DNA from: an uncultured Clostridia bacterium
GTDB taxonomy: Bacteria > Bacillota > Clostridia > Christensenellales > UBA1242
Assembly (NCBI GenBank): GCA_944349615.1
Contig: CALVNK010000002.1
Span: forward strand, 1 to 51,331
Length of the DNA stretch: 51,331 nt
Direction of reading: 5' to 3'
Part shown: in pieces, positions 47,214-47,917 of the stretch
Layout: every line of letters begins with the position of its first letter
Position numbering within the stretch: position 1 is the stretch's first letter
The notes under the pieces: model-generated
The model's database searches: none
What the model was told of the DNA's origin: nothing
Seen by the model: the letters and a program-made list of their open reading frames with translations, nothing else
Made by a program: the position numbers and the translations under genes

Positions 47214-47256
47214 ATATGTAAATCATCAAACATTTAGTAAAAGCAGAAAATTTAAA

Positions 47257-47283
47257 CAAAAAAAAGACCAACAAAGTTGGCCT
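47257..47283 (-). terminator. Rho-independent terminator closing the tRNA-fMet/repeat locus
   Basis: On the minus strand: AGGCCAAC-TTT-GTTGGTCT followed by T8. Confidence 0.65.
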
Positions 47284-47351
47284 CAAACGGAATAACAACA
47301 AAATCAACACCATATTTAAAAGTTGCAAAATTGTTATATCCGTTTTTTTAA

Positions 47352-47776
47352 TGGTTGCGGGAGTTGGATTTGAACCAACGACCGAATACGAGATTATATC
47401 TTCGCTCTGCTTCGATATATCCCTTCGGTCGCATTAAACAATAATCTTCTACTTGTTATTTTTTGAACCAACGACCGAATACGAGATTATATCTTCGCTC
47501 TGCTTCGATATATCCCTTCGGTCGTTACTAAAAAAGGTTAAGATATTATCCTAACCTATAACTTGGCTCTAGGGAGTTGGATTTGAACCAACGACCGAAT
47601 ACGAGATTATATCTTCGCTCTGCTTCGATATATCCCTTCGGTCACATTAAACAATAATCTTTCACTTAGTTATTTTGACCTAACGACCGAATACGAGATT
47701 ATATCTCCGCTTCGCTTCGATATATCCCTTCGGTCGTTACTAAAAAAGGCTAGGATATTATCCTAACCTATAAACT
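47352..47776 (-). repeat. Tandem 212-bp array (2 units) of tRNA-fMet 3'-fragments fused to a conserved 51-nt hairpin, each unit ending in a terminator
   Basis: 47352-47383 is identical to the 3' 32 nt of the tRNA (47777-47808). Hairpin copies GACCGAA..TTCGGTC lie at 47380-47430, 47473-47523, 47593-47643 and 47685-47735. Terminator hairpins lie at 47530-47557 and 47742-47769. Period is 212-213 bp. Confidence 0.9.
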
Positions 47777-47853
47777 TGGTTGCGGGAGTTGGATTTGAAC
47801 CAACGACCTTCGGGTTATGAGCCCGACGAGCTTCCGGACTGCTCTATCCCGCG
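47777..47853 (-). tRNA. Initiator tRNA-fMet (anticodon CAT), encoded CCA
   Basis: CGCGGGATAGAGCAGTCCGGAAGCTCGTCGGGCTCATAACCCGAAGGTCGTTGGTTCAAATCCAACTCCCGCAACCA. Shows the C1-A72 mismatch, A11:U24, and three G-C pairs closing the anticodon stem, all initiator hallmarks. Confidence 0.95.
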
Positions 47854-47888: not shown

Positions 47889-47917
47889 AGTATATGCCTA
47901 TTTTTATACTTTGTCAA
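47889..47917 (-). promoter_or_regulatory. Sigma-70 promoter for tRNA-fMet
   Basis: On the minus strand: TTGACA, 17 nt spacer, TATACT, about 35 nt upstream of the mature 5' end. Confidence 0.6.

Follow-up and report, generated by a model that had tools for sequence, protein, structure and literature searches.

The tRNA-fMet locus and its downstream array

The window analysed here is the whole 51,331-nucleotide (nt) stretch from positions 1 to 51,331 of the forward strand of contig CALVNK010000002.1, part of the 1.1-Mb, 85-contig, 94%-complete draft genome of an uncultured Clostridia bacterium (assembly GCA_944349615.1; Christensenellales, UBA1242). It carries the single copy of the initiator transfer RNA gene (tRNA-fMet) found in this genome, followed directly by a tandem array in which terminators, bulged hairpins and partial copies of the tRNA succeed one another on the minus strand (Table 1). 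The two units of this array are best explained as stacked, reduced copies of a tRNA-end cassette, one of many that lie behind tRNA genes in the genus. Our leading interpretation, held with moderate confidence, is that these are non-coding, protein-less insertion cassettes amplified by unequal recombination.

Table 1. Features of the tRNA-fMet locus in the window, cassettes behind other tRNA genes of the same genome (G000), and integrated elements in relatives (other G numbers denote genomes of the same genus, C numbers contigs, L numbers loci).
Feature	Location	Strand	Remarks
Promoter of tRNA-fMet	47889..47917	-	TTGACA, 17 nt, TATACT; near-consensus
Initiator tRNA-fMet	47777..47853	-	ARAGORN tRNA-Met(CAU); Rfam tRNA, 64.2 bits
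Unit 1	47776-47564	-	213 bp, own alignment
Terminator T1 of tRNA-fMet	47742..47769	-	10-bp stem and T run
Hairpin copy A1	47684..47736	-	5' arm CGACCGAAGGGATATATC, related to the reverse complement of tRNA positions 36-50; loop CGAAGCGAAGCGGAG
Decayed half T arm and spacer	47645..47683	-	GTTAGGTCAAAA, then AT-rich spacer of ~30 nt
Hairpin copy B1	47592..47644	-
Direct copy of tRNA positions 46-69	47564..47596	-	Variable loop and T arm, then variant acceptor end CTCCCTAGAGCCA
Unit 2	47563-47352	-	212 bp, own alignment
Terminator T2	47530..47557	-	Copy of T1; C-to-T changes preserve G-U pairing
Hairpin copy A2	47472..47524	-
Half T arm and spacer	47432..47471	-	GTTGGTTCAAAA, then AT-rich spacer
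Hairpin copy B2	47379..47431	-
Exact direct copy of tRNA positions 46-77	47352..47383	-	Variable loop, T arm, acceptor 3' strand, CCA; distal array end
Terminator T3	47254..47284	-	Closes the intergenic region ahead of a convergent 83-aa ORF and metG
Cassette at tRNA-Arg-ACG	G000 C5:26916-27150
Cassette at tRNA-Lys-UUU	G000 C12:100-320
Cassette at tRNA-Leu-CAA	G000 C14:5700-5944
Cassette at second tRNA-Met-CAU	G000 C27:9330-9700
Cassette at tRNA-Ile-GAU	G000 C29:12075-12251
Copies of the GGGTTCCCTRAAAAT..ATTTTTAGGGTGA repeat (examples)	G000 C14:5844, C27:9584, C13:24303, C18:17467, C23:173, C24:58, C37:11044
Tyrosine-integrase element in tRNA-fMet (L022)	G057:C4:30300-44700		Integrase at right end
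Tyrosine-integrase element in tRNA-fMet (L023)	G044:C1:1500-16300		Integrase at right end
Tyrosine-integrase element in tRNA-fMet (L024)	G095:C6:38300-49500		Integrase at right end

The gene at the head of the array is a genuine initiator tRNA with its own promoter and terminator, as a first-pass annotation of this DNA had proposed: it is recognized by both ARAGORN and Rfam, has the C1/A72 mismatch and an anticodon stem of three G-C pairs (GGG/CCC), and is preceded by TTGACA and TATACT at a spacing of 17 nt. That promoter is the sole good promoter-like site aimed into the array, and no unit has a promoter of its own. Neither ARAGORN nor the Rfam tRNA model finds a cloverleaf across the locus other than the one at 47777-47853, and the array units have no acceptor 5' strand and no D arm.

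Tandem Repeats Finder reports a period of 212 with 2.2 copies and 91% matches, and our own alignment resolves the same two units of about 212 bp that had been annotated, together with the half T arms and the copied terminator inside them. Each unit has the order terminator, hairpin, half T arm, AT-rich spacer, hairpin, and full T arm with acceptor strand. Terminator-like sites span 47769-47747, 47557-47535 and 47284-47264, within the T1, T2 and T3 intervals of Table 1. T2 departs from T1 by two substitutions and one indel, sequence divergence between the two units is about 9%, and the DNA beyond the distal end at 47352 is unique sequence. Both tail copies begin at tRNA position 46, in the variable loop, and the contrast drawn between them in the first-pass annotation is correct: the distal copy keeps a perfect acceptor strand and CCA, and the middle copy has a diverged acceptor. 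The variant end of the middle copy is also present in G021, and a similar end (CTCCAAGAGCCA) occurs in G015; the notion that a variant acceptor end, TAGAGCCA, was taken from another tRNA was rejected, as no tRNA of the window genome ends in this way.

The four hairpins are bulged, as annotated, but each measures 53 nt with its closing pair rather than the 51-52 nt given before. First base aside, they vary solely in the loop of the first copy, which reads GCGAAGCGG in A1 and GCAGAGCGA in the other three, and this agrees with the earlier remark that the copies differ almost only there. Predicted folding energies are -22.6 to -26 kcal/mol (z -3.4 to -4.7). The 21-nt 5' part of the hairpin is matched four times, with none expected from shuffles, and has no match elsewhere in the genome. 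It is therefore not a dispersed repeat of the repetitive extragenic palindromic (REP) or miniature inverted-repeat transposable element type, being confined to one locus and having arms derived from its target. Rfam searches of the window locus (E up to 10) give nothing beyond tRNA at the gathering score and no RtT, ribozyme or small RNA family, and those of the corresponding loci in nine relatives (E up to 1) give tRNA only and no RtT.

Cassettes at tRNA-fMet in related genomes

Matches to tRNA-fMet were found by BLAST in 143 of the 151 genomes of the genus, with at least two matches in 74, an upper bound in that some of the second matches are other things. About 70 tRNA-fMet loci were retrieved for comparison, and in these the extra tail copies lie without exception downstream of the tRNA and on its strand. 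The copies share a common plan: behind a terminator comes an arm that repeats an internal tRNA segment in inverted orientation, then a loop or larger insert, then the tRNA in direct copy from that segment to CCA, and usually another terminator; unit sizes range from 93 to 213 bp and the inverted arms from 8 to 18 nt.

Three types of unit can be distinguished. In type C, the type of the window's array, tRNA positions 36-50 recur in reverse complement as the 5' arm, (C)GACCTTCGGGTTATAT, and most tips take one of three forms: a C-GNRA-G or C-GNA-G loop, an extension CGAAGC..GCGRAG, or an insert of about 70 nt that is AT-rich. In the window's hairpins CGAA stands in place of TTCG, which extends the outer stem to 8 bp. 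Type A runs from GGGTTATG through a GC-rich module of about 85 nt into TCTAACCCGAAGG and the sequence after it; type B runs from positions 47-60 in reverse complement through a short loop, GA-rich, into GGTTCAAATCC and onward. In many type C units the T stem is joined to an acceptor-like 5' strand, with CGGGAG pairing with CTCCCG, and this strand tracks the species' own tRNA (GCGGAG/CTCCGC in G131, GGGAGC/GCTCCC in G106). The T stem of each unit is likewise that of its own species (GTTGG, GCAGG, GTAGG, AATGG and ACAGG among species).

The core pattern of the window's hairpin, GGGHTATATS..RATATAAYC, occurs in 31 of the 151 genomes, almost always at the tRNA-fMet locus and on the tRNA's strand, with no match for a reversed-pattern control. 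A covariance model of this hairpin type (R1) built from 21 units, when run on 301 genomes of the order, hits this genus only, apart from two spurious matches within coding regions. The closest relatives of the window organism by tRNA identity (G050, G083, G045, G089 and G130) each have different content at the locus, which points to fast turnover, and several relatives hold identical units inside their arrays. A search for near-identical strains of the window organism in Joint Genome Institute (JGI) metagenomes, aimed at copy-number variation, returned no match.

Some loci carry further inserts. In G120 (L041, G120:C61:36086-37900) the T loop of the third tRNA-fMet tail copy is interrupted by about 100 nt of GC-rich sequence, and in G098, G107 and G115 another GC-rich insert (GTCGCAAACTACGC..CCCCACAAATC..GATTTGCGGGG) follows the CCA.

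Cassettes behind other tRNA genes of the window genome

Five other tRNA genes of the window genome are followed by cassettes of the same plan (Table 1), one of them a second tRNA-Met(CAU) gene of elongator or Ile2 type; a possible and perhaps decayed cassette at tRNA-Val (C6:572-647) brings the total to five to six other loci. Each has a terminator, T-arm or anticodon-region sequence in inverted orientation, at least one hairpin module, and the final 17-40 nt of the tRNA in direct copy, and the duplication often runs into the terminator. The hairpin cores here and in the window's array differ in sequence from those of similar cassettes that could be compared.

This recurrence bears directly on the suggestion in the first-pass annotation that the array comprises T-arm and acceptor mimics of the initiator tRNA that could interact with formyltransferase, IF2, RNase P/Z or the CCA enzyme. 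As the same architecture stands behind several other tRNA genes, a function specific to the initiator (formyltransferase, IF2 or initiator identity) is unlikely, and the decay of T loops in the units of many relatives, the lack of a promoter in any unit and the occurrence of the related module in both orientations at other loci also speak against it; the array probably does not consist of working mimics of initiator tRNA.

The tRNA-Ile cassette is 99% identical between the window genome and G005 and 78-79% identical in G014 and G015; the homology between the window genome and G005 stops exactly at the distal CCA, and across species the pairing of its hairpins is preserved by compensatory changes. 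Beyond this cassette, C29:12290-12650 contains a series of TAGGCACAGGA motifs that look like integrase arm sites, with an open reading frame (ORF) on the minus strand after them; possibly an element has integrated here, using the distal tRNA-Ile copy. The genome also has 12 copies of a dispersed hairpin repeat, GGGTTCCCTRAAAAT-loop-ATTTTTAGGGTGA, which is about 35 nt long and has variable loops; it is common to the Leu and Met cassettes and is also found at non-tRNA sites.

A GC-rich module in gut Clostridia

The core of the type A insert was scanned over one genome per species of bacteria and archaea. Besides chance matches in GC-rich genomes, it is found in about 20 assemblies of AT-rich gut Clostridia, as a module of about 50-90 nt with the consensus hairpin, YTNAGCC-GAGC, variable hairpin, GCGAAC-GCCACGRAGC, GNRA or GAA loop, and GCGRAG-TA. 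The variable hairpin covaries: in an alignment of 18 sequences 93.8% of cells are paired, 17 cells are changed on both sides, and none of 500 shuffles reaches the score. The module adjoins pieces of tRNA-Gly, Thr, Leu, Arg, Ser and fMet genes or lies within them, closed by target-derived inverted arms; both orientations occur. Within the genus, a model of the module (R2) has strong matches at tRNA-fMet loci and also matches a variant form (GCGAACGCCAAG..CTTA) at loci of tRNA-Thr, Ile and Arg and at several sites away from tRNA genes. Related modules run antisense to the tRNA at loci of Thr, Leu and Arg.

Among the individual occurrences (L114-L193, e.g. L149, L158, L160, L169 and L191), the arrangement GCCGAGC-hairpin-GCGAACGCCACGRAGC-loop-GCGRAG lies in or beside pieces of tRNA-Arg, Leu, Thr and Gly. 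The module is sometimes upstream of a tRNA gene, in tandem with 5' tRNA fragments, and one Lachnospiraceae assembly has it on at least four contigs.

At 24 Clostridia loci no recurrent ORF lies beside the module, and no Rfam family matches it. A phage origin was rejected, all 13 matches in viral contigs being chance ones inside GC-rich coding DNA, and readings of the module as a hammerhead, K-turn or sarcin-ricin motif gave no convincing fit by eye. The loop of the window's hairpin A1 differs at one position from the 3' hairpin of the module (CGGAGCGAAGCGGAG), and type B loops (CTTAGCGAGC..GCGAGC) resemble its 5' part; judged by this likeness in sequence, the window hairpins may be reduced derivatives of the module.

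Integrative elements at tRNA-fMet

The first-pass annotation had raised the possibility that relatives carry an integrative element at tRNA-fMet, and such elements are present: three genomes (G057, G044 and G095) have one of 10.8-14.4 kb with a tyrosine integrase (Table 1). Their attachment (att) repeat is 45 bp and corresponds to tRNA positions 33-77, and attR has neither an inverted arm nor a hairpin. Simple att scars would predict an element bounded by the hairpin repeats, and none of the three is so bounded. In G057 and G095 hairpin units lie beyond attR, downstream of the native terminator. The arms of the elements carry direct repeats of the TTGACACC type; repeats of this type, or of the TTGACTCTC type, are absent from the window units. 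Several other species have left-arm scars of the integrase element (TTATAAATAAAGGG..TAGCGATTTT), and these are unlike the hairpin units. Because the true att repeat is 45 bp long and starts at position 33, has no inverted arm, and leaves the units outside attR, the units are not att scars of this integrase.

In G083, G131 and G007 it is the CCA of the distal unit, not that of the tRNA itself, that borders on an older element scar or on another element, as expected if each cassette entered at the tRNA and so displaced the previous 3' end outward. No far-end att copy is present within 7-19 kb for the elements in G083, G131 and G005 that were examined in this respect.

A further inserted element with a replication-protein-like ORF was noted in two genomes. 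In G005 (L009/L095, G005:C1) it starts right after the CCA of tRNA-fMet, in G007 (L047/L096, G007:C4) right after the CCA of the distal type B unit, with no far-end repeat within 17 kb. A reading of the palindrome as the att site of a large serine recombinase was rejected, as no recombinase gene is present at any hairpin locus and the loops range from 3 to about 130 nt.

Origin of the array

We favor an origin of the array by insertion of short cassettes at the tRNA end. Each cassette comprises a terminator of its own, a hairpin formed by foldback, and the 3' portion of the tRNA in direct copy as far as CCA. In the foldback, the 5' arm repeats in inverted orientation the tRNA segment with which the fragment begins, and the tip has either a loop or a GC-rich hairpin module with many GNRA loops and G-A mismatches. 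We infer the mode of entry, the direction of insertion and the segment inserted as follows. A cassette would enter at or inside the 3' part of the tRNA, leaving the gene intact with a fresh 3' end and terminator and displacing the older 3' end downstream. The resulting direct repeats of 30-45 bp would permit unequal homologous recombination and so give rise to tandem copies, in the window four hairpin sub-units arranged as two 212-bp repeats. The hairpin stems could be retained either because a folded single strand is needed for spread or through correction of palindromes at the DNA level by template switching. Template switching, in the process known as quasi-palindrome mutagenesis, can produce compensatory changes in palindromes even where selection plays no part. 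The host most likely gains nothing beyond extra hairpins that possibly aid termination from the strong tRNA promoter.

A bolder version of the cassette model is that these are protein-less, target-templated mobile elements of small-genome bacteria, active as folded single-stranded DNA or RNA. In that state the tRNA-derived arms, inverted and direct, would either replicate the 3' part of the tRNA gene or guide the element to it, the GC-rich GNRA/G-A module would serve as a handle for a host recombinase or nuclease acting in trans, and the element could be retargeted to any tRNA by recopying its arms. Such recopying would account for one module family lying behind fMet, Thr, Ile, Arg, Gly and Leu genes with host-matched arms. 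We regard this version as speculative and unlikely in the form stated.

Several observations weigh against insertion by cassettes. No candidate enzyme has emerged: there is no recurrent ORF at the modules, no small GIY-YIG nuclease near tRNA-fMet in the 151 genus genomes (PF01541 matches are UvrC and some small ORFs that lie on different contigs or at a distance from tRNA-fMet), and integrase arm sites are absent from the units. The window lacks a full module and has no match to R2, and its link to the GC-rich module amounts to about 15 nt of similarity. As the window hairpin is confined to one locus, its own mobility is putative, and no clean pair of empty and filled alleles was found among the compared loci. 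The stems of type C, for which covariation had been proposed as a check, have none above shuffled controls and are nearly invariant in sequence. Other observations fit a transcribed and selected RNA, and are considered with that alternative.

In this alternative, the units are expressed structured RNAs, made by read-through from the tRNA promoter and processed in an RtT-like manner, with a putative role in processing of the precursor or as a decoy or sponge for toxins or enzymes acting on tRNA 3' ends. The constant orientation of the units in the genus accords with it, as do the predominance of C-GNRA-G and C-GNA-G loops and the excess of G-T over A-C mismatches in the stems (29 vs 10). In many relatives the T loops of the units decay but the ends are retained (the terminal ACTCCCGCAACCA; the final 13 nt with CCA), and in many units the acceptor-like CGGGAG partner varies with the species' tRNA. 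In G106, G137, G016 and G146 the hairpin itself acts as the tRNA terminator, in the first two together with a T run, and the tRNA-Ile hairpins hold their pairing through compensatory changes. However, a terminator lies ahead of every unit and no unit has a promoter, the type C stems do not covary, related modules are antisense to the tRNA at three kinds of locus, the content of the locus turns over quickly among close relatives, and Rfam, RtT included, gives no match; a role restricted to the initiator is further at odds with the same plan at many different tRNAs. From this balance we give an RNA-level function a small but real chance.

The second alternative is that the units are ordinary att scars, that is, attR-type fragments or cis-mobilizable remnants of repeated integrations into tRNA-fMet whose cargo has been lost. 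A tyrosine-integrase family does use this gene in the genus, and the downstream direct repeats equal a 3' segment of the tRNA (46-77 in the distal copy and 46-69 in the middle one). The starts of the fragments, in the anticodon loop, variable loop or T loop, resemble the integrase sublocations of Williams 2002 as cited in PMC9897764, and for other elements there is documented stacking in which successive integrations displace older copies outward. Against this, the true att repeats begin at position 33, have no inverted arm, and occur separately from the hairpin units at the same loci; inverted arms of 8-18 nt derived from the target are not predicted by att sites of the Campbell type; the units lack arm repeats of the TTGACACC type; and where elements border on distal units, a search over 7-19 kb gave no att copy at the far end. 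We therefore consider it unlikely that the units are simple att scars. Of the earlier proposal of nested scars left by a tRNA-fMet-targeting element, the insertion hot spot stands and a history at the DNA level fits best; derivation from the tyrosine-integrase element, with its 45-bp att and no hairpin, does not hold.

Tandem duplication followed by decay is a third possibility, in which the tRNA gene and its terminator were duplicated by slippage or unequal crossing-over and the 5' parts lost; complementary arms would have evolved, or been template-switched, since free 3' halves would misfold the precursor or trap processing enzymes. Internal units do hold a copy of the tRNA's terminator, arrays of several relatives contain identical units, and in most units both tRNA-derived single strands are masked by pairing. 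The same conserved hairpin nevertheless recurs in 31 species with otherwise unrelated flanks, modules are common to different tRNA types and to non-tRNA sites, single units can have differing proximal and distal terminators, and deletion of a harmful fragment would be simpler than masking it, all of which makes this origin quite improbable. Finally, although the genome is a metagenome-assembled draft of 85 contigs, an assembly artefact of a repeat is highly improbable, as the divergence of about 9% makes at least two units distinguishable in assembly, the distal flank is unique, and analogous arrays are present in dozens of independently assembled relatives.

Relationship to known systems

Fragments of tRNA genes in the form of att repeats, and the accretion of cis-mobilizable remnants, are described in PMC9897764, and stacking of the tycheposon type, in which sequential integration moves older copies outward, is described in a preprint (10.1101/2020.12.28.424599). 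The cassettes resemble these att fragments in having a 3' tRNA repeat downstream of an intact gene, starting near the anticodon or T loop, and stacked with older copies further out. They are unlike them in carrying no integrase or cargo, in their size of 93-213 bp, and in having a target-derived inverted arm, a junction hairpin or module, and a terminator of their own.

A second comparison is with RtT repeats. At the E. coli tyrT locus these (Rfam RF00391) follow a tRNA gene in tandem, with a repeat length of about 180-210 bp and the 3' end of that tRNA copied at the end of every repeat; their function is unexplained. The window array shares the repeat length, the position directly behind a tRNA gene and the copies of its 3' end; it differs in having no Rfam match and in units that are separated by terminators and include an inverted tRNA segment.

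REP and bacterial interspersed mosaic element (BIME) type repeats and the mobile GC clusters of yeast mitochondria are likewise short GC-rich hairpins in an AT-rich genome, with variable loops and covarying stems, that lie in intergenic regions after genes and are sometimes nested or in tandem. In the cassettes, by contrast, the closing arms are copied from the neighboring tRNA, the association with tRNA genes is strong, and no RAYT-type or other transposase is linked. Integron attC sites and the attP of CTX phage also have bulged hairpins, one arm replicating the target, and tandem cassettes at one site, but the resemblance is architectural only; unlike attC, the cassettes have no R/L box consensus and no genes.

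None of these systems, be it att fragments, RtT, REP-like repeats or attC, combines target-derived inverted arms with a structured module and no protein. A literature search for cassettes with target-derived inverted arms found no description, and the kind appears to be undescribed.

Partial tRNA genes are routinely taken as integrase footprints, a reading that fails here on anatomy, and such fragments are a repeated feature, found behind many tRNA genes in a genome of 1.1 Mb and throughout a large genus of gut Clostridia that are uncultured. If mobile, the cassettes would represent a compact way of colonizing essential single-copy genes without breaking them, with rapid structural change at tRNA loci; if transcribed, they would form an uncatalogued class of tRNA-trailer RNAs. 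In practical terms they affect tRNA annotation (pseudo-tRNA calls), prediction of genomic islands (false att sites), and assembly of such genomes.

Genes adjoining the locus in relatives

At two of the tRNA-fMet loci compared, L028 (G089) and L044 (G141), a P-loop ATPase gene lies directly downstream. By eye it has a likeness to zeta-toxin-type kinases, with the motif GPNGSGKST.

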